IMG/VR virus record: IMGVR_UViG_3300021978_000002
Location: 1-24,318 of that record
From: a virus
Taxonomy: Duplodnaviria; Caudoviricetes
DNA length: 24,318 bases
Strand: one strand, 5' to 3'
Shown here one piece after another: positions 1 to 14,131 of the stretch (positions are counted from its first letter, which is position 1; each line of letters begins with the position of its first letter). The notes under the pieces were generated by a model that searched no databases, was not told the DNA's origin, and saw nothing but the letters and a program-made list of their open reading frames with translations. Position numbers and translations under genes: made by a program.

Positions 1-9
1 GAAAATGAC

Positions 10-46
10 AAAAAAAAACCCCATCTGCCAAAACGACAGATAGGGT
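10..46 (-). terminator. Intrinsic terminator
   Basis: - strand ACCCUAUCUGUC-GUUUU-GGCAGAUGGGGU then a U tract (9 A at 10-18 on +); G:U pairs form only on the - strand. Confidence 0.85.
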
Positions 47-167
47 GGAAGTTCCAACGGCTTAGTGTCTGCAAACACAAACCATTGAGGCTTATTGGTT
101 CGGATATGGAGGGGTTGGGTTGAGTTCCTCCACTCTTTGCTTCATAAAGCAAATAATGGAAAAACCT
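10..167 (-). ncRNA. Putative ~160-nt small RNA, antisense to the early direction
   Basis: TATAAT at 179-174, consecutive hairpins, terminator at 46-10; no credible ORF with an RBS. Confidence 0.55.
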
Positions 168-173
168 TATGTA

Positions 174-200
174 ATTATACGATAAATCTCTTAATTTATA
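174..200 (-). promoter_or_regulatory. Sigma70-type promoter (-10 TATAAT with upstream TTAAG/AT-rich tract)
   Basis: - strand ...aattaagagatttatcgTATAATtacata...; predicted start about 167. Confidence 0.6.
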
Positions 201-219
201 TTAAAAATAAGCAATTATC

Positions 220-390
220 AAAGCTTTTGATGAGAGTGCTAACAAAGACCGACTTTTGATAGAGGTAATGTCAAGCGGTTCGAGCGACCGTTCCTATAGC
301 GTTATCGAAGAATAAAGCGTAAGATCACACATCAGCCATAGGTTCTGGAGGCAGTTGTCGGAACAAAAAGGCACTCTCACAAAGAGCTTT
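220..390 (+). ncRNA. Structured RNA 1: long closing stem (RNase III-site-like) around a multibranched domain
   Basis: 220-240 AAAGCUUUU-GA-UGAGAGUGCU pairs with 370-390 GGCACUCUCA-CA-AAGAGCUUU (19 bp, 2x2 internal loop, G:U pairs on + strand); inner stem CCGAC 249-253 / GUCGG 357-361. Confidence 0.6.
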
Positions 391-577
391 CACCCAGACG
401 CACCGAAAAAAGATACATTCGCACATTGTGACTCCTTATGATTTGTCCTGCTTGGATGCCATAGGTTCCTTTCAAAACATAATAATCGGTCGAGACATAG
501 ATTCATTATTTCTCCTTAATACATTTCGCGTTGACCTTACTACGGGAAACCGCCGGTGCGTCTGATTGAGAGCTTTT
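382..577 (+). ncRNA. Structured RNA 2: RNase III-site-like stem enclosing three anti-RBS/start-codon modules
   Basis: 382-405 AAGAGCUUUCA-CC-CAGACGCACCG pairs with 554-577 CGGUGCGUCUG-AU-UGAGAGCUUUU (22 bp, 2x2 loop); GNRA hairpin CGG-GAAA-CCG at 543-552; CAU...UCCUU modules at 424-438, 460-472, 504-518. Confidence 0.6.
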
Positions 578-599
578 AAATCTAATGAAAGGACTAGAG

Positions 600-827
600 A
601 TGCCTGAAAGAATGATTGTGTTTTCTGACCTGTGCCCTAAGTGTGGTGCAGAAATTATAGATACTGACGGTGTTAATCTTATGGAAGACAAGGGAGAGGT
701 TAAGTGTTGGGAGTGTGGTACTACATATGAATACAGGAAAATATTTAAAGATAGTCCTGATAACCCATATTGCGATGAAGAATGGGTAAAAACTGAATAT
801 ATAGTAAAGGACGTTAGAGATGTTTGA
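600..827 (+). CDS. Small zinc-ribbon protein
   Basis: CPKCG...CWECG motif; SD AAAGGA at 588-593 favours ATG 600 over 585. Confidence 0.75.
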   Translation: MPERMIVFSDLCPKCGAEIIDTDGVNLMEDKGEVKCWECGTTYEYRKIFKDSPDNPYCDEEWVKTEYIVKDVRDV

Positions 828-1266
828 AAAAATCTTGAAACATTTTGGGTATGCAAGAAACACTGAATCAAATTACTACAAAACAGAGACTGCACGACTT
901 GAAAGAGAGTTAGCAGGATTCATTAAGGCAAATTCTAAATTATATGATGAGAAGATTGACCTGCTAAGGTTAAATGAACAGCTGACTAAAGAGAACCAGG
1001 AACTAAGAGAAGAGAAAGATGCATATTGCCACAACGCAACAAGCCAAAAAGCTCAGATTGAAGAACTAAATAGAGAGATAAAAGAGCTAAAACAGCGATG
1101 CAATGACAAAAGAGAGCAGATAGCCATACTTGATGAAGCAAATGTAAAGCTACAAAAAGAACTATCCGAATGCAAAACCCAGCTTGAAAAAGCTCTCTCT
1201 AAACCATTTAAACACGCTCATGAAGCAAGACATAAAAATATCAAGCATAGGAGAAAAAAGAGATGA
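820..1266 (+). CDS. Coiled-coil hypothetical protein with basic C-terminus
   Basis: SD AAAGGA; heptad-rich E/K/L sequence; overlaps both neighbours. Confidence 0.8.
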   Translation: MFEKILKHFGYARNTESNYYKTETARLERELAGFIKANSKLYDEKIDLLRLNEQLTKENQELREEKDAYCHNATSQKAQIEELNREIKELKQRCNDKREQIAILDEANVKLQKELSECKTQLEKALSKPFKHAHEARHKNIKHRRKKR

Positions 1267-1487
1267 CTGAAATTAGAACTAATTTAAAAGCAGAATTTAG
1301 CATTTTTGAAACGTTAGATGAAGTTGAAGATGTAGCTAAAAATCTTCTGATAAAGATTGATGAAGCTAGAAAGTCTACAAGAACAAATAAATATCACAAA
1401 GTACCTGCCGAAAAAATTAAAAATATAGAAAAAGAATTTTCAAAACTGCTAGATTGTTTTGAAATTGAAGGTTTTAATGATTACTGA
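1263..1487 (+). CDS. Hypothetical early protein
   Basis: ATGA overlap with upstream gene; GGAG SD. Confidence 0.7.
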   Translation: MTEIRTNLKAEFSIFETLDEVEDVAKNLLIKIDEARKSTRTNKYHKVPAEKIKNIEKEFSKLLDCFEIEGFNDY

Positions 1488-1505
1488 TGAAAGGAGAAAA
1501 AAGCG

Positions 1506-1688
1506 ATGATAACCATAGACAAGATCCAACACATAGAACTTAACTCTTTTTTACTATACCGTAGCAAGTGGAGGATACCAACAATTAAGGAGTGTTTGGA
1601 ACAGATAGAAAGACGGGTAAAAATTTACTTTAGTCCCATAAACATACAACGCATACAGGAGAGACGAAATGAGCACAAATCCGCCTAA
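1506..1688 (+). CDS. Hypothetical early protein
   Basis: Strong SD AAGGAG; fits the operon. Confidence 0.6.
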   Translation: MITIDKIQHIELNSFLLYRSKWRIPTIKECLEQIERRVKIYFSPINIQRIQERRNEHKSA

Positions 1689-1920
1689 AATAAAAGACCA
1701 CGAAACAACAGATATAAATATTGTAACAGATAAAACAATAGAAAAGCTAATAAATCTGAATGAACACCCTGATGGTGGACTAGAGTATCTGCAAAGCGTA
1801 AGAGATGTGTACCATGACATATATAAACGAACAGGACGCTCTTATACTTTTAGCCAAATACTTGACCAAGCCTGTGAAGATTTGGGCATTGAAGAGCCTT
1901 ACAATCCATTTGAGGATTAA
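1669..1920 (+). CDS. Hypothetical early protein
   Basis: SD AGGAG; fits the operon. Confidence 0.7.
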   Translation: MSTNPPKIKDHETTDINIVTDKTIEKLINLNEHPDGGLEYLQSVRDVYHDIYKRTGRSYTFSQILDQACEDLGIEEPYNPFED

Positions 1921-1923
1921 CAA

Positions 1924-2073
1924 ATGATTGAATTACTAACACTTTTAACCGTTCCACTAGCACTGGTAGCATACTTGATCGGCAGAATACAAGGCGAAAA
2001 AATAGCTAAAGAGAAATACTGGGACTGGACAGTCAGTTTTTATAACGGAAAACCAATAAGGATGGACAAATGA
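1924..2073 (+). CDS. 49-aa single-pass membrane protein (not in ORF track)
   Basis: MIELLTLLTVPLALVAYLIGRIQGEK...; SD GAGGA; ATGA overlap with next gene. Confidence 0.7.
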   Translation: MIELLTLLTVPLALVAYLIGRIQGEKIAKEKYWDWTVSFYNGKPIRMDK

Positions 2074-2825
2074 CAAATGCAGAATATAGAGCTGTTGACG
2101 CTATAAGTAATAGCGATTTGAGCTACATTGAAACAAATCCATACCTTTACGCACTGGGATTTAGACCACAGATAGAGTCTAAGGCTTTAGAGTTTGGTAC
2201 GTTGGTCCACGCCTTAACCCTAGAGCCTGAAAAGTTTACTGAAGAGTACGCAGTGGAGGACTTTGAGGGTTGCGAGCTAAACAAGAACTCCAAAGCGTAC
2301 AAAGAAGCCAGAGCTAACTGGCTTCAAACAGTAAACGGTAAAGAGATTATATCAAAAAGCGATTATGAAAAGGCGAAAACGCTATCAGATAGAGCAAGAA
2401 AGCTAATAGAGCCTTTAAGCGGCAAAGCTGAACAGAGCTATATATCTGATTGGAACGACCAAATAAAAGTCAAATGTAGACCTGATTTTTTAACAGATGA
2501 CGGAGTGCTGATTGATCTCAAAACTACAAGCACAGATGTAACAAGTGATTACCTACTTTCAAAAACTATTTACGATAGGAAGTACCACCGACAACTTGCT
2601 TTTTACAAAATGGTACTTGAATTGTCAGGTGTAGAAGTTAAAGAATGTGTCCTAATCTTTGCAAATACATCAAACTTATGGGTAAGAGGAGTAAAGATAC
2701 TCCCAGAAGATTTACAACGTGGACACAATGAGGCGATCCAGATACTTGATAGATATAACTCTATCCTAAAGAACGGATTAACACTTAACGGACTTTTTGA
2801 GCCTATTTTATTACCGACTTACTAA
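2070..2825 (+). CDS. RecE/exonuclease VIII-like PD-(D/E)XK exonuclease
   Basis: ISNSDL, GTLVHALTLEPEKF, KCRPDFL, IDLKTT, YHRQLAFY motifs; adjacent to recT. Confidence 0.9.
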   Translation: MTNAEYRAVDAISNSDLSYIETNPYLYALGFRPQIESKALEFGTLVHALTLEPEKFTEEYAVEDFEGCELNKNSKAYKEARANWLQTVNGKEIISKSDYEKAKTLSDRARKLIEPLSGKAEQSYISDWNDQIKVKCRPDFLTDDGVLIDLKTTSTDVTSDYLLSKTIYDRKYHRQLAFYKMVLELSGVEVKECVLIFANTSNLWVRGVKILPEDLQRGHNEAIQILDRYNSILKNGLTLNGLFEPILLPTY

Positions 2826-2834
2826 GGAGAAATA

Positions 2835-3809
2835 ATGAGCAATATAACACCATACCAACAACGAGAAACAGAAGTAAGAAATCTCATAAAAGAGAGAATG
2901 CCACAATTAGCACTATTTGTCCAGGACAAAGCCACACGCAACAAATATGCAAGTGCTATCACCTCTATAGCTATGAACAAAAACTTACGAGATGTAAGCC
3001 CTGAAAGCATAGTAAAAACAGCCTTTGAGATAGTGCAATTAGGACTAAATCCAAACCCACTATTTGGTCAGGCTTACGTAGTGCCATTTAACCTGAAAAA
3101 TGGTGGTCTAACTGCTCAACTTCAGATCGGTTACAAAGGCTACATAACACTGTTAAACCGTGCAGGATGGGCGATCCGTGCAGTAGCGGTCTATGATGTA
3201 GATAGATTTTCTATCAAATTTGCAGGACTAAAAGATGAAATAGAATTTGAACCAAACTATGATGAAAGACAAAACGACAACGGAGCCTGGGTATACAACA
3301 ATCTAAAAGGTGCAATCGTCTATGCACAGCACAAAGACGGACAAGAGTATAGCGAGTTCATCCCTTTTAGAGTGCTTGAAAAACTAAGAGTAAAGAGCCA
3401 AAATCAAAAAGCAGGACAACTTAGCAACATCTGGCTTGAGTGGACTGAAGAGATGTACCTTGCAAAAGCCATTAAGAAAGTAGCTAAAAAATTACCGCTT
3501 GATGATGAGAGAGTAATCGAAGCTACTATCTTAGAAGATGAGCCAGTGAGATTGGAAGAGAAGCCACAAGTTCAACAACCACAACCACAAACGCTTAACA
3601 CGCAAGTACTACCACCTAAAAAAGAGATTGGCAACCTTGAAAAACACTACCCTGATTTGATCCAGGCAGGTGTTAAGAGAAATGACTTAAAAGGTTTTAT
3701 AGAACGCTACCAATTGACAGATGAGAACATAGAAAGCACTCTAAACGATGTTAATGGCTTAAAAGTTATGGTTGAAGAGTTTTACAACACTGAAGAAGTG
3801 CCGGTCTAA
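2835..3809 (+). CDS. recT: RecT-family single-strand annealing protein
   Basis: LGLNPNPLFGQAYVVPF, AQLQIGYKG, EEMYLAKAIKKVAKKLP motifs; SD TAAGGAG. Confidence 0.92.
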   Translation: MSNITPYQQRETEVRNLIKERMPQLALFVQDKATRNKYASAITSIAMNKNLRDVSPESIVKTAFEIVQLGLNPNPLFGQAYVVPFNLKNGGLTAQLQIGYKGYITLLNRAGWAIRAVAVYDVDRFSIKFAGLKDEIEFEPNYDERQNDNGAWVYNNLKGAIVYAQHKDGQEYSEFIPFRVLEKLRVKSQNQKAGQLSNIWLEWTEEMYLAKAIKKVAKKLPLDDERVIEATILEDEPVRLEEKPQVQQPQPQTLNTQVLPPKKEIGNLEKHYPDLIQAGVKRNDLKGFIERYQLTDENIESTLNDVNGLKVMVEEFYNTEEVPV

Positions 3810-3818
3810 CTGGCACTT
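3796..3818 (+). other. Hairpin over the recT stop codon (weak terminator or mRNA stabiliser)
   Basis: AAGUGCCGG-UCUAA-CUGGCACUU; only a short U run follows. Confidence 0.45.
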
Positions 3819-3832
3819 TAAGGAGATAGGTT

Positions 3833-3904
3833 ATGACAAGTGAAGAGCAACACATAATAATCAAATACCTGGAAGAGAAAGCACTTGACTCAAGGTTGGT
3901 ATAA
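3833..3904 (+). CDS. 23-aa peptide (not in ORF track)
   Basis: MTSEEQHIIIKYLEEKALDSRLV*; strong SD TAAGGAG; its stop merges with the next gene's SD. Confidence 0.5.
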   Translation: MTSEEQHIIIKYLEEKALDSRLV

Positions 3905-3914
3905 AGGATGAAAT

Positions 3915-4262
3915 ATGAGACTTGTAACAAAGGCTGAAGCAGTTAAAGAGACAGGTCTACACTGGGTATATTTTGCACCATCAAGCACAACGAAAAGGTA
4001 TAAAAAAGCAATAGTTGGTAATAAAGTTGATATGGATAAACTGCAAGAGATACAAAACAAATATAAAGAGCTTGAAATCATTAGAAACTTTGTAATGTAC
4101 CTAAAGCATGAAAAAGGCATCTTGTTTAAACATATAGCACTTGTAGCTGGAAGAGCAATCCCCACAATAGCCAATCTAAAATTTGGTTTAGAACCAGCTG
4201 AACGAATCAAAAACTTTTACTATAAGCAGTACGAAGAATTTAAAAAAGAGTACGGGTATTGA
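3915..4262 (+). CDS. Basic hypothetical protein, possible HTH DNA-binding
   Basis: SD AAGGA; FKHIALVAGRAIPTIANL resembles an HTH. Confidence 0.6.
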   Translation: MRLVTKAEAVKETGLHWVYFAPSSTTKRYKKAIVGNKVDMDKLQEIQNKYKELEIIRNFVMYLKHEKGILFKHIALVAGRAIPTIANLKFGLEPAERIKNFYYKQYEEFKKEYGY

Positions 4263-4360
4263 ACCGATTTTACAGAGGATTAAATCAAATCATCTGGCTT
4301 AAACACTTACTGAGGAAAACTTTGTCCTACCAACTTGAAACAATTGTAAAAAGGATAAGC

Positions 4361-4651
4361 ATGAGTCTTGATGAAGCAATTCAAACTATACCAACATTGA
4401 AAGAAATGTTAGAGCGTATAGAACGTAAAGAGTATCTATCTGAATTTATGACACCAGAAGAAGTAGAGACAGAATTTGGTATTAGCAAAAGTACTCAAAA
4501 CCAAATGCGATCAAATCGTGAGATAGATTACTATAAACCAAAAGGTAAAGTGCTATATAAAAGAAGTGATATAATAGAGTTTGTTGAAGCTAACAAAATA
4601 CCAAAAATTTCTATTGACCGTACCAAACACCGTACCAGTAAGTTTTCTTAA
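4361..4651 (+). CDS. xis: Excisionase-like winged-HTH protein
   Basis: FMTPEEVETEFGISKSTQNQMRSNREIDYYKPKGKVLYKRSDIIEFVE is a typical Xis/HTH_17 pattern; SD AAAGGA favours ATG 4361 over TTG 4259; next to int. Confidence 0.8.
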   Translation: MSLDEAIQTIPTLKEMLERIERKEYLSEFMTPEEVETEFGISKSTQNQMRSNREIDYYKPKGKVLYKRSDIIEFVEANKIPKISIDRTKHRTSKFS

Positions 4652-4842
4652 GCCCTATAAAAACCGATATATAGGGCTTTTGTAAATTTATAAGGTACGG
4701 CTGTAAGCCGTGAACTATCACTAACCTTAAAAAAATCACTTGCAAAATAATACCATAAACACGCTACTTTTAAACTTTATTTTCTACACATTATTGTATA
4801 TTATTTAAATCATACCGTACCAATTCACCGTACCAGTACGGT
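4617..4842. other. Putative attP with integrase arm-type sites
   Basis: ACCGTACCA at 4617-4625, 4629-4637, 4814-4822, 4827-4835; inverted partial copies at 4694-4700 and 4836-4842; central dyad ACGGCT-GTA-AGCCGT 4697-4711. Confidence 0.75.
4650..4683 (+). terminator. Intrinsic terminator after xis
   Basis: AAGCCCTATA 4650-4659 / TATAGGGCTT 4670-4679 followed by TTGT. Confidence 0.65.
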
Positions 4843-4856
4843 TAGGGAGAAATAAT

Positions 4857-5915
4857 ATGCAAAAAACAAAGTATGAAGGTGTTTATTTTGTAATTGGTGC
4901 TGATGGTAAAAAAAACTACAAAGTCCGCTTTTGGGTACATGGAAAAGAATATAAACGCACAATAGGTAAAGAGCCGTTATGGACTGCAAAGTCTGCATCA
5001 CTAGAACGGGAGCGTTTGATTGATGAATACATAAATGGAGAAATCACCCAAATTAAAAAAATGGATGATATGTTTATTGAATATTTAAATGACCGTGGTA
5101 CTAAGCTCTCTAAGTGGTGGAAGAAAAACAATACATATTTATATAAGAATCATATAAGCCCTGCTATTGGTCACTTAAAGGCAGATACAATCAAACGACA
5201 TATGATTCAAAAGATTGTTGATGATATGTTAAACAAAGGATACAAGCCAAAAACTGCTAAAGATGTTAAAGACACGCTAAGTGCATTTTTCAAATATTAC
5301 GACCTACCAAACCCTGCTGCTAGAGTTGATATTCCAAAATTTGATAATTCAGTACAATTTGATCTAACAATTGAGGAATGCAAAAAAGTTTATGATGCGA
5401 TAGTAAACTATGATAACACTAAATACAGATGTTTTTTTACCCTACTTTTGCATGGCAGACGTAGAGGCGAAGCTATGAGCATAAGAGTTGAAAATATAGA
5501 CTTTAATGAAAAAGTTTATATTATTAAATATGAAGACAACAAGAGGCGAAAAACGGTGACGCATCCATTAACTCCAATGCTTGAAAAAATGATGCTAACT
5601 CTAATAAAGCAAGAAAAAATCATATCAGGGTATTTGTTTAGAGGTAGAAAAGAAGGCACTCATATATCACCTTATGCAGTTGAATATCATTGGCAAAAGA
5701 TAAAAGAAAAATCAGGCGTAAAATTGAGACTGCATGATTTACGACACATGATCGGATATTTAGGTGTAAATATGGGTGCGTCATTAGAACAAATAGGAAA
5801 AGTATTAGATCATACAAATATTTCAACTACAAAAAGATATTCTAATGTAAGAATCCAGCAAGCAGGAACATTACTTGATAATATTTTTGAGACATTAAAA
5901 AGGGAGTCTAACTAA
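4857..5915 (+). CDS. int: Tyrosine integrase
   Basis: Catalytic motifs HGRRRGE (R), LHDLRH (H-x-x-R), LDH...TTKRY (H, Y); N-terminal arm-binding-like domain. Confidence 0.96.
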   Translation: MQKTKYEGVYFVIGADGKKNYKVRFWVHGKEYKRTIGKEPLWTAKSASLERERLIDEYINGEITQIKKMDDMFIEYLNDRGTKLSKWWKKNNTYLYKNHISPAIGHLKADTIKRHMIQKIVDDMLNKGYKPKTAKDVKDTLSAFFKYYDLPNPAARVDIPKFDNSVQFDLTIEECKKVYDAIVNYDNTKYRCFFTLLLHGRRRGEAMSIRVENIDFNEKVYIIKYEDNKRRKTVTHPLTPMLEKMMLTLIKQEKIISGYLFRGRKEGTHISPYAVEYHWQKIKEKSGVKLRLHDLRHMIGYLGVNMGASLEQIGKVLDHTNISTTKRYSNVRIQQAGTLLDNIFETLKRESN

Positions 5916-5922
5916 GCTCCCC
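5897..5922 (-). terminator. Probable late-operon terminator inside the 3' end of int
   Basis: - strand GGGGAG-CUUAGUUAGA-CUCCCU-UUUU spanning the endolysin stop. Confidence 0.55.
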
Positions 5923-6322
5923 TAACAATTCCAACAAGTTCTTCAGCCCTACTTTTAACTTGTCTATACCATACACTACTTTCCATCTCATCTGCCATTT
6001 TTTTAAAATCTCTATGTTTAACTGCTGCAATCATCTTTTTAAATTTTAAAAATCTAGATTTCCCTAAGTTGAAAATCATATCCACTAAAACATTTTGGAT
6101 CTCTTTTGGCAAATCGTCAAAATCTTCAAAAATTTCCCTAAGCTCATTTTTACAACGTCTAATATCCATCCTAAGTAAATATAGAGCTTCACTCTCAGTA
6201 ATACCATTATCTTCAATATTACGTCCTACCCCAATAGTTAGTTTACCAGCTGGACAATAATAAGGCTTCAGCTCCATTCCTTCATGTCTAATTAACATCT
6301 TTTCTAGCTCTGTCATCTTCAT
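5912..6322 (-). CDS. Endolysin, T4-lysozyme-like (GH24) muramidase
   Basis: HEGMELKPYYCPAGKLTIGVG gives E-x8-C-x5-T; DMIFNLG; SVWYRQVKSRA; no hydrophobic SAR N-terminus. Confidence 0.9.
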   Translation of the reverse strand: MKMTELEKMLIRHEGMELKPYYCPAGKLTIGVGRNIEDNGITESEALYLLRMDIRRCKNELREIFEDFDDLPKEIQNVLVDMIFNLGKSRFLKFKKMIAAVKHRDFKKMADEMESSVWYRQVKSRAEELVGIVRGA

Positions 6323-6324
6323 TC

Positions 6325-7218
6325 CTATTTTTCAAATTCAACTTTTACACTGTAACCGCTACCATTAATAGTATGCGTAACTCTTTTGATTAGATACTCA
6401 CTGTCATCAAAACTTAGCTTACCACCAGCTATGATATTTCTACCTGTACAAGTCAAACTACCCTTCACTGTACCGCTATTTAACAATCCTAAAACTCCCT
6501 CAGCTCTTTTTAGTGCCTCTTCTTTACTTTTAAAGCTACCTCTAAGATGGTAAACTGGTTCTCCACTACCATATATCACTTCTATATCTTTATTCTCTTT
6601 TGTATCTCTAAAAGTTGCTTTAACGCTTTTGTAGAGTGTTTTATTTGCATATGTCAAAGAGTAGTTTTCTGCTTCATCTTTATCAATAGAGAAAATAGGC
6701 AAATCACTTTTTGTTTTTTCAATGAAAATGAGTGTATTATTTTTGATATTGAATGTTGCGTTGTAATCTTTTGCAAGACGATCTAAAAGATGTAAATCAC
6801 TTTCGTTTGTTTGACTTATATGCTTTAAAAAAACATCTCTAAAATCAGCTTTGACTCTTAAACCATGTTTGGAGGCAATCTTGCTGACTAAATCTTTCAG
6901 TGTTAAGTTCTCATAGCTTATATTTACTTTCTCTTTCAAATTGGCAGTAAAATTTGTACTTGTTGCTTTTACTGTTAGACTGAGCTTAGTTTGCGTGGTA
7001 GTCTGTACCAGGAAGGTACCACAAAAATAAAGTCCACTCTCTTTATATCCAAGCCATACTTTTATCTCATCTTTATAGCTTGGTCTGCTAAAAGAGCCAT
7101 CAAACTTTAACTGCAGTTCATCTGTTGCAGTACCATTCTCATCTATCAACTGAATTGAATCAGGCTCAGTTTTCAACTCACTTCCATTTATAGTGATTTT
7201 AAAATCAGGTGTTACCAT
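6325..7218 (-). CDS. Baseplate hub / late control D family (P2 gpD-like)
   Basis: VWLGY...GTFLV, QTNESDLHLLDRLAKDY motifs; U-X-D gene order. Confidence 0.9.
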   Translation of the reverse strand: MVTPDFKITINGSELKTEPDSIQLIDENGTATDELQLKFDGSFSRPSYKDEIKVWLGYKESGLYFCGTFLVQTTTQTKLSLTVKATSTNFTANLKEKVNISYENLTLKDLVSKIASKHGLRVKADFRDVFLKHISQTNESDLHLLDRLAKDYNATFNIKNNTLIFIEKTKSDLPIFSIDKDEAENYSLTYANKTLYKSVKATFRDTKENKDIEVIYGSGEPVYHLRGSFKSKEEALKRAEGVLGLLNSGTVKGSLTCTGRNIIAGGKLSFDDSEYLIKRVTHTINGSGYSVKVEFEK

Positions 7219-7409: not shown

Positions 7410-7767
7410 TATATGCCCTCAATGAGATTTTAAAATCATTTTTTACATAATGCCCATTATCCATAAAATAAGATCTTCCCTCGCTAATCTTTTCTATGAT
7501 AACTTCCAAGCTCTCTCCACTTCCTAAAGTCAAACGTACCGGCTCTTTTTTCTTTGCCAAGCTTTCTATAGGTTTTAGATCACCATTGCTTTTTGAGATA
7601 AGCTTACCTTCTATCTCAAAACTCTCTTCATATCCATTTACAGATTGAAAAGTCGGGTTTTTGCCTAATCTGCTTTTTTTTGCAAAAGTAAAGCTAAGTG
7701 TTCTATTTATTTTTTCAAATTCTCGTTTTTCTACCTCAAAAAGAACACCACCCAGATCACATAACAT
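7402..7767 (-). CDS. P2 gpU-like tail tube initiator
   Basis: [31 protein letters not shown]; follows tape measure. Confidence 0.88.
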
Positions 7768-10700: not shown

Positions 10701-10846
10701 TTGTTTATCTCATTAAATGAAGTTGTTGCATCAATACCTTTTATGCTTTTAGAGAGATTTCCAAAACCCTCACTCATCTGTGCCAAGGGCTTTGAGACTC
10801 TATCTATCGCACTTAAAACAATCCCAAGAGTCATAAGTTTTTCCAT
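7757..10846 (-). CDS. Tail tape measure protein (TP901-type core)
   Basis: 1029 aa, Ala/Gly-rich helical core, [11 protein letters not shown] hydrophobic segment, W/F-spaced repeats, position after chaperone. Confidence 0.95.
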
Positions 10847-11413: not shown

Positions 11414-11905
11414 TTACATAATATGACTTCTAAGAGCTTCATACTCATCAACACCGTTGATTTTGCAGATGTAGTTTGGTATGTCAATGTTGTACATCTC
11501 TTTTCCATCTACCTCAAGTCTGTATGTTTGAACATTTAGGTTTAGCACGATACTATCTGCCTCACCTATTTTTCCTGCAAACTCTTGATCAGATACCCAG
11601 GCTCCAATCTCTACATATATACCCATCTTTTTAGCTCTATCTCGCACACTCTTTTTAATGACGAATGTAGCTATCTCATGTGTTCTTTTACTTACCGCTT
11701 CCCAAAGCACTGCATTGTACTCACCAACTTCTATCTTAGCTTCAAGCGGTTCAAGCATTCCAGTATCAACTTTTCTACCATTTACATCTGTTTGTTTAAA
11801 CTTGACCTTTGGTAGGCTTATATCCTTAGTAGTTCCAATGAAACCAACGCCTTGAACAAAGACTTCCTGCCCTACCAGCGTATTTATAAGATTCTGTACC
11901 ATCAT
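11414..11905 (-). CDS. Tail tube protein (P2 FII-like)
   Basis: ISLPKV, GMLEPLEA, YRLEVDGKEMYNIDIPNYICKINGVD. Confidence 0.92.
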   Translation of the reverse strand: MMVQNLINTLVGQEVFVQGVGFIGTTKDISLPKVKFKQTDVNGRKVDTGMLEPLEAKIEVGEYNAVLWEAVSKRTHEIATFVIKKSVRDRAKKMGIYVEIGAWVSDQEFAGKIGEADSIVLNLNVQTYRLEVDGKEMYNIDIPNYICKINGVDEYEALRSHIM

Positions 11906-11912
11906 TTACCCC

Positions 11913-13034
11913 TTAAATTGAATTAACCCATTCTATAAATGCTTCATTCCAATCATCACTGAATACAAGATCGAAATTAAGCTCTCTAATTGCCGGCATA
12001 TTTGCAGTTTTAAGCACAAATGTAAACTTACCAGCTGTTACATCGCTTCGATATGGATCCAGGTAAATCTCATATCCCAATGCTATCTTTGCACCAGTTA
12101 GCTTTCTGAAAAACTCGCTACAGGTCTTTTTAACCCAAATAAGCTGATCTGCACTTCTATCTCTAGCCCATTTATTTGCTGCAATAACTGCTTCAAGCCA
12201 TCTGTAAAACGCCCGTACCCGCTCTAAACTCTGCCAAATAGGGTCGATATCAGTTGTTTCAAATCCGTAAGCTCTCCAGCCAACATCTTGCACTATGCCA
12301 CCTACTCCATTTTGTCTAAGTCTTCTTGCCTCACAATCAACACCATCAAAGTATTCAATAGTTCTCTCACTACCACTTACACCTTTGACTACACGGTTTG
12401 AATGGCTTCTTGCATACCCAAACTCATCAAAACCATTATCTCCGCCTGCATCCCAGTAAGCAATATGCCCAGCCATTAATGCAGATGTAGGATAAGTTAA
12501 TCCTTCTGCTTTGCTTCTACCACTATATAAAAGTAGATATCTACTTCCAAAGTTTGCAGCAAAATTCAACGCCTCAGCTTCATTTGCAGCATTTACATCT
12601 ACAATTGCAGTAGCTCTAAATTTAGCGGCTAAACTATCCATCTTTGCAGCTACATCTACATCGTATGAGTATTCTGGACAAATAACAAGATTAGGACGTG
12701 TTAAGATGTTTTCATCAAATGGAGCAGTTTTAAGTACATCAAGACCGTTTAAGACGTTATCTTTAACTCCATCATCATCTTTTACAAACTTAACAACTAT
12801 TTTTGTGCTTACATTTTGTAGTGCAATTGCATTCGCAGTTTTGTAAGCTAGGTCATCATCTGTGCTTCCATTTTCTTGCAAGAACTCTTTAAACTTATCA
12901 CCATTATTAAAGACAATAAAATCCTCTTTATCTTTAAATGGAACAACTACTCCAATAGGAGTGGTACTATCTACTATGACCGGACGTGCAGCTTGAACCG
13001 AAATACCACCATTGATACCAAAGTTAAGATTCAT
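11913..13034 (-). CDS. Tail sheath protein (P2 FI-like)
   Basis: STTPIGVV, PNLVICPEY, SHSNRVVKGV, GWRAYG motifs. Confidence 0.93.
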   Translation of the reverse strand: MNLNFGINGGISVQAARPVIVDSTTPIGVVVPFKDKEDFIVFNNGDKFKEFLQENGSTDDDLAYKTANAIALQNVSTKIVVKFVKDDDGVKDNVLNGLDVLKTAPFDENILTRPNLVICPEYSYDVDVAAKMDSLAAKFRATAIVDVNAANEAEALNFAANFGSRYLLLYSGRSKAEGLTYPTSALMAGHIAYWDAGGDNGFDEFGYARSHSNRVVKGVSGSERTIEYFDGVDCEARRLRQNGVGGIVQDVGWRAYGFETTDIDPIWQSLERVRAFYRWLEAVIAANKWARDRSADQLIWVKKTCSEFFRKLTGAKIALGYEIYLDPYRSDVTAGKFTFVLKTANMPAIRELNFDLVFSDDWNEAFIEWVNSI

Positions 13035-13194
13035 TTCTCACCTCTTTTTTAGTTGTTTTGGCATGTCTAAATTGATCTGTTACAACACCTCTTTTTTTAA
13101 GCTCACCTACCACAACTTCACTAAACTCTGCTACTTCATCTTTTTTAAAAAGCTGACCGTTAAAGCTAAAGTTTCTTAAAAATTTAACCTTCAT
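13024..13194 (-). CDS. 56-aa protein (not in ORF track)
   Basis: MKVKFLRNFSFNGQLFKKDEVAEF...; SD AAGGAG; ATGA overlap with upstream gene; resembles the N-terminus of the 21465-21758 product. Confidence 0.75.
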   Translation of the reverse strand: MKVKFLRNFSFNGQLFKKDEVAEFSEVVVGELKKRGVVTDQFRHAKTTKKEVRNES

Positions 13195-13562
13195 ACTGTT
13201 ATCTCCTTCCCTACCATTCCATCATAAACTTTCTCTCTCCAAAAGGCTTCATAACCAAACTTTTTAACTGCTAAGTAAAAGCTCTTAGCTAACACTTTCT
13301 TAAACGGTTTAGTAGTTGGATGTGAAGCTTCAACTATGCGATTAAGATTATTTATGAAGACTCTATCCGCTACCTTTTTATCTTCATCTGTTTTTCCTAC
13401 ACGGTACATATAGTCGTGTATGTTGCAAGCCTCTTTAAAGCTTCCTTGCGGGATAAGGAAGTTCAGCTTACTTCCTTTAGCTCCACACCCATTACATATT
13501 TTTCTTTTTAGGCTAACTTCTAGCTCCCAGTACTCTTTGGGGGCATAAAGCGTTACTTTCAT
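13191..13562 (-). CDS. Small protein with phospholipase A2-like C-x-x-H-D-x-x-Y motif (DUF1353-like)
   Basis: ICNGCG...EACNIHDYMY...KKVADRVF. Confidence 0.65.
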   Translation of the reverse strand: MKVTLYAPKEYWELEVSLKRKICNGCGAKGSKLNFLIPQGSFKEACNIHDYMYRVGKTDEDKKVADRVFINNLNRIVEASHPTTKPFKKVLAKSFYLAVKKFGYEAFWREKVYDGMVGKEITV

Positions 13563-13570
13563 TCATACCC

Positions 13571-14131
13571 TCACAAAGGATACTCTGGATACTCGGGTTT
13601 TCTACCTTCATTTATGGCACTTATACCCTCTCTTATACAATCTTCAGCCCATTGAGTACGAATAGCAACTTTTACAAGTTTTTCAAAGTATATTTTTTGC
13701 GATTCATCAACATCTGCTAATACTTCATCAAGTGTTGCACCATCTAAAAAAGATTTTGTCATTGCTACAATTTTTGACTCCAAATCAATAACTCCTGCTG
13801 CTTTTAGCTTTGTAGAGTAACTATCAACCCATTTTGCATCTTGAGCTTGTTTCTTTTCGCTATAAAAAGAGTAGATATGCTCTTCAATAGGTAAATATTT
13901 TAGCTGCTCTCTTGCAAACTTTATTTTTGCTTTAAACTCATCAGAGCTAAAGTCTGTATCATCTGACAAAAGCTCGTTACTTCCAAGCAATAATGAAGCT
14001 TCAATTCTTATAGGAAGCGATGGTTGTTGTCCTTGCTTATAAAGCTCTATTGCATTTTTTAAAAGTTCCTTTGTAGCATCATCACTTTCGCTTTTTAAAT
14101 AGTTATTTAATAGTGTGATCTCTCTTCTCAT
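13571..14131 (-). CDS. Putative tail fibre assembly/chaperone protein
   Basis: Directly after the fibre-like gene; C-terminal PEYPEYPL resembles Tfa-type termini; largely a positional call. Confidence 0.5.
   Translation of the reverse strand: MRREITLLNNYLKSESDDATKELLKNAIELYKQGQQPSLPIRIEASLLLGSNELLSDDTDFSSDEFKAKIKFAREQLKYLPIEEHIYSFYSEKKQAQDAKWVDSYSTKLKAAGVIDLESKIVAMTKSFLDGATLDEVLADVDESQKIYFEKLVKVAIRTQWAEDCIREGISAINEGRKPEYPEYPL

Follow-up and report, generated by a model that had tools for sequence, protein, structure and literature searches.

The c4 RNA of bacteriophages P1 and P7 sits in the leader of the operon it controls. The CI RNA of satellite phage P4 is processed from an early-operon leader and acts on the transcript of that operon, by way of nearby leader sequences and premature termination, and lambda controls int by retroregulation. 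The c4 RNA (RF01695) is described as a temperate-phage RNA cut out of a longer transcript; of its several loops, held in conserved stems, one lies over a ribosome-binding site, and specificity depends on a variable loop (PMC5320573). For CJnc190 of C. jejuni, a 186-nt precursor is described in which RNase III cuts an intramolecular duplex to give the mature form; the RNA binds its target by a C/U-rich loop that covers the ribosome-binding site and start codon (PMC8687705).

Here we analysed a 24,318-base stretch of DNA, referred to as the window, which is the whole of virus record IMGVR_UViG_3300021978_000002 (Caudoviricetes). The window contains a conserved, uncatalogued, putative leader RNA, structured according to its predicted fold, with three modules that mirror translation start regions, one of which has a credible target pair among the recombination genes. 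Like c4, it belongs to a temperate phage and carries several loops in stems, with its third module (module 3) predicted to lie on the ribosome-binding site of the phage's own gene, recT, over 16 nt. In contrast to c4, which is ~77 nt long with three stem-loops bearing the a' and b' loops, the domain predicted in the window is ~197 nt with four inner hairpins; where c4 has an RNase P-type stem, this domain is closed by one of 22 pairs, three of its loops mirror a Shine-Dalgarno (SD) sequence plus AUG, and its predicted targets are recT and int instead of an antirepressor operon. As with CJnc190 and RepG of Helicobacter pylori, the likely host belongs to the same phylum and a C/U-rich loop predicted to be open, module 3, is complementary to an SD and start codon; the 22-pair stem predicted in the window is a candidate for RNase III cleavage of the CJnc190 kind. 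Unlike CJnc190 and RepG, the element is phage-borne and has three start-mirroring segments, whereas CJnc190 is chromosomal with one shown target type. It also differs from P4 CI RNA in that its predicted targets lie 2.3 and 4.3 kb downstream in the window.

The original prediction held that no named family has this layout. By sequence this stood, as Rfam gave no match at gathering score in the window and none over 221-581 at E up to 10, the c4 model included; the mechanism, in contrast, has precedents in c4 of P1/P7 and CJnc190. In the literature found, mostly abstracts with few subscription papers, this element is not described, and among the same sources, again with few subscription papers, we found no regulatory RNA of a deep-sea Campylobacterota phage. 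A search of 401 Campylobacterales genomes for sequence relatives returned short chance matches alone.

On the + strand between 600 and 5915, small ORFs are followed in order by RecE-like, RecT, excisionase-like and integrase genes. The recE-like gene (2070-2825, +) encodes a DUF3799/PDDEXK exonuclease by Pfam, the recT ORF (Pfam RecT) occupies 2835-3809 (+), an HTH_17 excisionase-like gene (xis, +) lies between recT and the integrase gene, and the int ORF spans 4857-5915 (+). On our reading of the translations, the genes that run towards this block from the right side of the window encode tail, baseplate and head proteins. A 42,315-base contig on record encodes the same integrase and RecT proteins. 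The phage is temperate. Its closest cultured relatives are the Nitratiruptor phages NrS-4 and NrS-5 (68% for RecE, 60% for RecT), the best named relative of its integrase comes from a Sulfurovaceae bin, and all eight runs that hold window DNA are hydrothermal vent samples; together these point to a vent member of the Campylobacterota as the likely host. To our knowledge, this phylum lacks Hfq. Since NrS-4 has the same gene order as the window (repressor, accessory genes, leader, RecE, RecT, integrase), we regard 221-581 as the leader of the early recombination operon.

Several features around this operon were noted in passing. The first gene after the leader, 600-827, encodes a 75-aa zinc-ribbon protein (600 being its recorded start), and relatives place other genes there. 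At 4620-4850, CACCGTACCA-type repeats flank a terminator-like hairpin between xis and int; these repeats suggest that attP with arm sites likely lies there, in which case int would have its own transcript in the prophage. The neighbouring 4401-4600 is also deeply shared among relatives. On the - strand, 10-170 is strongly folded (z -5.95), with three hairpins, the end being a U-tract terminator, and a TATAAT box at 178-173. This stretch, which is absent from the relatives compared, is a candidate divergent small RNA of ~155 nt on the strength of its predicted fold.

The predicted fold of the leader comprises two domains, stem 1 and stem 2. Stem 2 (381-577, 197 nt, four inner hairpins) is closed by the 22-pair stem, whose 5' and 3' arms lie at 382-405 and 554-577 (both +) and form 11 + 11 pairs around a 2x2 internal loop, two of them G:U, with a pair probability of at least 0.88 in 21 of the 22 pairs. 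This modelled helix is a candidate RNase III substrate. The + strand had been put forward as the RNA, and for stem 2 the folding agrees: 381-577 has a z of -5.1 on the + strand versus -2.57 on the - strand, and 330-600 of -2.46 versus -0.14. Stem 1 (231-379, +) offers no such strand difference (z -2.14 on + versus -2.41 on -). By folding and contig comparison, it has a closing helix and an interior that varies between relatives. A tRNA-like reading of stem 1 was rejected, its UUCGAGC loop being without G-C closure, and the window contains no tRNA or tmRNA. At the 5' edge, a short palindrome (217-231) forms a hairpin in the minimum-energy fold and is possibly the operator of an early promoter.

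Within stem 2, a five-pair hairpin at 419-431 (+) is predicted to present the CAU of module 1 as a triloop, and a GAAA tetraloop hairpin is present at 543-552 (+), as had been read from the letters. Also in keeping with that reading, module 3 falls in the loop of a GGUCGA/UUGACC helix (488-493/531-536, pair probability ~0.7); this six-pair helix closes a hairpin at 488-536 (+) whose interior is the variable region described below. Because 435-440, the end of module 1, pairs with 460-465, the start of module 2, the CAU of module 2 is predicted to be paired while its anti-SD half is open, and the two modules are not independent of one another. Module 3 has an unpaired probability of 0.7-1.0 at 509-516 and a small opening cost of 2.6 kcal/mol, versus 5.1 for module 1 and 3.8 for module 2; opening the recT and int sites would also cost little, at 3.3 and 2.4 kcal/mol, respectively.

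A re-check confirmed the modules exactly, in sequence, position and spacing (36 and 44 nt). Module 1 (424-438, +) is the complement of a start region consisting of an SD, 6 nt and AUG; module 2 (460-472, +) is likewise the complement of a start region; and module 3 (503-518, +), with its anti-SD part predicted open, complements the recT start exactly over 16 nt. Likeness among the modules reaches 12 of 15 letters, and the first 11 nt of the module 2 stretch (458-468), but not its anti-SD end, occur again at 335-345 (+). Unlike CRISPR- or TIGR-like arrays, the locus is without regular flanking direct repeats, its repeats being the likeness of the modules and the 11-nt pair at 335 and 458, and a Pfam scan of 12 left-arm proteins found no dedicated guide-effector protein among them. 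Three CAT-N3-7-TCCT(T) motifs were reached in 0.010-0.015% of 20,000 dinucleotide shuffles of 381-577. The presence of three modules in 197 nt is thus far above chance, at about 1 in 10,000 shuffles, a figure that is generous since the pattern was chosen after the modules had been seen.

Scanning the start regions of the window gave module 3 an exact 16-nt target at recT and a 16-pair target at int. The predicted recT site (2823-2838, +) comprises SD, spacer and start codon, overlaps the recE stop codon and forms a duplex of -22.4 kcal/mol; the match extends to 18 of 19 letters with one mismatch. The predicted second site (4841-4856, +) covers the SD and spacer of int (-19.5 kcal/mol) and pairs with positions 505-520 through 16 pairs, two of them G:U, with the start codon outside the pairing. 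Among 40 window starts, recT was the best partner of module 3 (-22.4, 16 Watson-Crick pairs) and int the second (-19.5, 11 Watson-Crick pairs, 16 including G:U), followed by one at -17.6. For comparison, 24 outside loci yielded 179 roughly called starts, and even the best of these, at -21.0, fell short of -22.4; their longest run was 12 and their 1st percentile -18.8. The exact match suggests that the RNA likely lowers recT, and possibly the integrase.

The recT start is itself of a consensus type. A 15-mer of the target has 41 matches in 28 of 121 Campylobacterales genomes. At the mean rate ~0.004 matches are expected per 24 kb, and ~0.06 if the rate of the richest genome is used; neither figure corrects for the presence of three modules. 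Each of the 30 genome matches that were fetched opens a reading frame of 28 aa or more, and the genes concerned are unrelated; two other, unrelated starts in the window share at least 13 letters with the target. As the target is a consensus-type start with two such sharers in the window, a chance match to recT is possible, although these rates make it unlikely.

Modules 1 and 2 had been reported to be without an exact target in the window, and this was confirmed. No exact target was found in NrS-1 to -4, L001, L002 or L240 either (longest run 12), and an exact complement of each occurs in 0 of 151 genomes. This search covered the 24-kb record, with ~18 kb of the phage, as judged from the 42,315-base contig, lying outside it. 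Two candidate pairings were rejected: module 1 with the start at 7767 (-19.9 kcal/mol), which falls within the range of outside starts, and module 2 with a tail gene start at 7218 (-22.4), which also falls within that range (best -24.1), so that such energies arise by chance. Phage, host and defence genes had all been suggested as targets; module 3 does point to a start inside the phage, whereas the 0 of 151 genomes with complements of modules 1 and 2 lend nothing to host or defence genes.

We compared window positions 1-6000 with contigs of four of the eight vent runs (X3, X4, X7 and X8), using difference tables rather than an alignment; X1, set aside as a possible source of the window, and X2, X5 and X6 lie outside this comparison. 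The early-operon leader, 221-581 (+), is a block that is kept while both flanks change. Contigs of X4 and X7, from one study, match from 221 and are loose after 581, and a contig of X8, from another study, matches over 382-613; summed contig depth is 33-36 over 401-600, 0 over 1-200 and at most 2 over 601-800. Upstream within the block, X7 has 9 letters inserted at 255-262 and X8 has different sequence before 370. The loose end of X8 there reads as a T-loop-like (tRNA T-arm-like) hairpin, which immediately precedes the 3' strand of stem 1 and has no counterpart in the window, whose sequence differs at this place. Downstream, the X4 contig joins the leader to 1501, and in X8 the leader is followed, on our reading of the loose end, by a homolog of the gene at 820.

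The X8 contig over 382-613 is the most divergent copy, with 16 substitutions and 13 gap letters. Among the changes listed for it, 10 substitutions and 6 indels fall within 382-581, with one more at 582. Thirteen of these 16 lie in 494-540, around module 3, and 15 lie outside helices, leaving one within the 94 helix positions; when the changes are merged into 6 clusters, this avoidance of helices is not significant (p 0.13). That one helix change, 420 C>U, turns a C-G pair of the module 1 hairpin into U-G, a pair that works on the + strand alone. One nucleotide is deleted at 452, within a hairpin loop, and six are deleted at 411, within a linker. Module 3 of X8 has a changed spacer and a changed anti-SD; it keeps CAU and has a CCCUU end, and thus still mirrors a start. 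Among the changes listed, there were none in modules 1 and 2 in the relatives, none in module 3 in X4 and X7, none in the closing-stem arm at 382-405 in X8, X4 or X7, and no two-sided compensatory changes. The proposal of several variable guides between constant stems, for which related phages were to be compared, is therefore upheld for the module 3 region in one divergent copy, X8, and not for modules 1 and 2, which are unchanged in all relatives among the changes listed.

An X8 contig also matches the window through 2829, including the recT SD, even though module 3 of X8 differs, so guide-target co-variation was not seen. If both X8 contigs represent one phage, the pairing of module 3 with recT would not be kept in X8; their depths are unequal (8.7 and 31), however, and they may stem from more than one phage. 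Contigs from RNA libraries were neutral on expression: those of X3 span 835-3492 piecewise, with the greatest depth at recE-recT, and leave 1-834 uncovered, and that of X8 over 382-613 is 2,199 bases long, so it shows no discrete small RNA, and may be DNA. One X3 contig, 2473-3492 (the end of recE plus recT), has a depth of 452, far above its neighbours, in a data type that cannot rank expression.

Beyond the vent runs, searches for homologs of the leader returned nothing related. IMG/VR pattern searches gave 29 matches, none related, and two further patterns gave 0; patterns for modules 2 and 1 gave 6 and 18 matches, none a homolog. Of 20 matches to a closing-stem query in JGI metagenomes, none was related, and blastn gave a best E of 3 against phages and no match against plasmids. 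DNA searches found matches of 19-32 nt alone in 28 of 401 genomes of the order of G001, one short match in 250 genomes of the family of G217, and matches in 6 of 353 genomes of the family of G001, none of them in window 1-700; four further genome entries gave 0 matches. A one-sequence covariance model run on 37 sources had the window itself as its sole significant match, and a single match in 150 genomes was rejected as it lies inside a 661-aa gene. The neighbourhoods examined among 160 RecT loci and of integrases contained no leader homolog (from one 80-locus set, L081 and L096 were those examined), and a RecE query found no viral locus.

The cultured Nitratiruptor phages carry a simpler look-alike of the leader RNA. 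In the early leaders of NrS-1, -2 and -3, a long hairpin with interruptions in its stem presents an open loop of 20 nt, which is complementary to the start region of an unannotated membrane-protein ORF of 77-78 aa, ~480 bases away (14 nt exact in NrS-2/3), and the hairpin shows one compensatory stem change, from U-A in NrS-3 to C-G in NrS-1. In NrS-3 (L355) the hairpin lies at 13525-13605 (-) and its target start at 13099 (+); in NrS-1 (L357) these lie at 11555-11635 (-), overlapping the start of an annotated CDS, and 11134 (+); and in L356 at 13554 (-) and 13075 (+). This hairpin shares with the window its early-leader position, a similar stem base (AGCUUU ... UGAGRGCUUU) and a loop that mirrors a start of its own phage; unlike the window, it has one 20-nt loop rather than several. 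The motif used for the stem base was defined once the likeness had been seen, and four of 359 sequences contain it (the window, NrS-2, NrS-3 and one unrelated locus). Aligned locally with the leaders of NrS-1, -3, -4 and L001, the window leader did no better than shuffled sequence, so the likeness is one of design, with homology unsupported. The main text of PMC9723563 makes no mention of the hairpin under the words antisense, toxin or RecT. In L001, the leader at 3420-3625 is folded, and its pyrimidine-rich 3' part pairs with start 9183 of the same operon at -27.9 kcal/mol, in low-complexity sequence.

From the observed sequence, operon position, block conservation and recT/int complementarity, taken together with the predicted fold and openness of module 3, we infer the following course of transcription, processing and repression. 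The leader would be transcribed from an early promoter near 195-230, and a double-strand nuclease such as RNase III would cut the 22-pair stem and free the stem 2 domain. The freed RNA would pair in trans without Hfq, its open third loop blocking ribosome loading at the recT and int ribosome-binding sites, and RecT and Int would thereby be lowered during lytic growth. Modules 1 and 2 may be aimed at starts in the part of the phage outside the 24-kb record, or may be partly structural. That the locus encodes an antisense leader RNA of c4/CJnc190-like type, so far uncatalogued, with genes of the phage itself as its targets is, in our judgement, evenly poised between true and false. If true, an early-leader RNA that damps both recombinase and integrase would achieve through RNA what lambda achieves by int retroregulation.

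A bolder form of this reading, which we consider doubtful, makes the leader a modular, protein-free guide cassette: an RNase III-released scaffold with exchangeable loops of reversed start regions, silencing the phage's own genes or those of competing phages or the host. Retargeting would then occur by changing the spacer between anti-AUG and anti-SD, and the single-loop NrS leader hairpin would be a one-guide form of the same family. Should the loops prove to be exchangeable guides on one scaffold, the element would silence translation of several genes at once, a multiplex silencer of natural origin, and would offer a ready knock-down scaffold for Campylobacterota.

Among the competing explanations, the one that survives best is that the leader acts in cis, as a structure for RNase III processing or stabilisation or as an antitermination element, with the motifs and the recT match incidental or with the first downstream gene as its only object. 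In lambda, the PL leader contains a stem cut by RNase III; the corresponding position in HK022 is occupied by put RNAs. A cis role would suit the location of the leader directly before a variable first gene, its invariant closing stem and the predicted pairing of modules 1 and 2 with each other. It leaves unexplained, however, the three anti-start motifs (~1e-4 in shuffles), the survival of CAU and an anti-SD in the most variable region, and the fact that recT and int are the two best partners of module 3; pairing with the first downstream genes is also weak (-13.3 at best for the start at 600, -14.2 for that at 820). We regard this explanation as unlikely.

The functional product could instead be on the - strand, the modules being the true starts of micro-ORFs and the + strand leader at most their cis-antisense partner. 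Such a product might be a leader-peptide relay ending in a 33-aa ORF, or a type I toxin-like unit. The original prediction had itself listed these micro-ORFs as an alternative, and their lengths of 38, 8 and 33 aa were confirmed for micro-ORF 1 (390-506, -), micro-ORF 2 (436-462, -) and micro-ORF 3 (325-426, -). The complements of the modules do read like natural starts, as 5 of 6 viral matches to the complement of module 2 begin ORFs of at least 48 aa, and the stop of the 8-aa ORF falls inside the SD of the 33-aa ORF. The explanation deserves weight because, in NrS-1, -3 and -4, an operon-strand anti-start motif turns out to mark where a genuine 26-aa peptide, conserved and hydrophobic, begins antisense to the same operon, and because the window has a strong - strand terminator at 46-10. 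That terminator region is nonetheless absent from the relatives compared.

The X8 copy weakens the micro-ORFs in part. Its 1-nt deletion frameshifts micro-ORFs 1 and 2 while their starts stay; micro-ORF 3 retains its start and frame despite the 6-nt deletion, but carries E3K and has a C-terminal part that is apparently replaced. In its long-range folding, and in having a small ORF whose strong SD lies opposite an antisense RNA, the locus resembles the aapA1/IsoA1 type I toxin-antitoxin system of H. pylori (PMC5416894); unlike that system, there is no hydrophobic peptide, and the frame is broken for two of the three ORFs and kept for the third. No transmembrane stretch was found, the best 15-residue hydropathy being 0.38 (38 aa) and 1.42 (33 aa) versus 2.35-2.86 for the NrS peptides. 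Micro-ORFs 1 and 3 have no exact sequence match in a collection of 15 billion proteins and no phage match better than E 3, and micro-ORF 3 has one match among 1.84 billion proteins, which is repetitive and unrelated. With folding and G:U pairs favouring the + strand as well, we consider a - strand product quite improbable.

A broad translation damper, in which the loops mimic the 16S anti-SD and the initiator anticodon and pair imperfectly with many host and phage starts, would fit a module 3 complement that is a common start in the likely host group (before groEL, fusA and acpP on our reading of the translations), the lack of exact targets for modules 1 and 2 and the CAU loop of module 1, but it is very unlikely given the exact 16-nt fit of module 3 to a gene of its own operon.

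Some further observations were made in the NrS phages. The 26-aa ORF, with a strong SD in a folded region antisense to the early operon, lies on the + strand at 10734 in NrS-1 (L357), 12699 in NrS-3 (L355) and 10669 in NrS-4 (L354); it is annotated with a longer start in NrS-1 and -3 and is unannotated in NrS-4. From its sequence, the locus looks like a type I toxin-antitoxin. In NrS-3, 12375-12820 (-) contains an anti-SD stretch with an 11-nt exact complement at the integrase start, 1159 (-), which may be due to chance. Two tandem stem-loops right after the early promoter are conserved in NrS-4 (L354, 10989-11328), NrS-3 (L355, 13496-13773) and NrS-1 (L357, 11624-11770), all on the - strand, and their position and shape are reminiscent of put-type antitermination RNAs.
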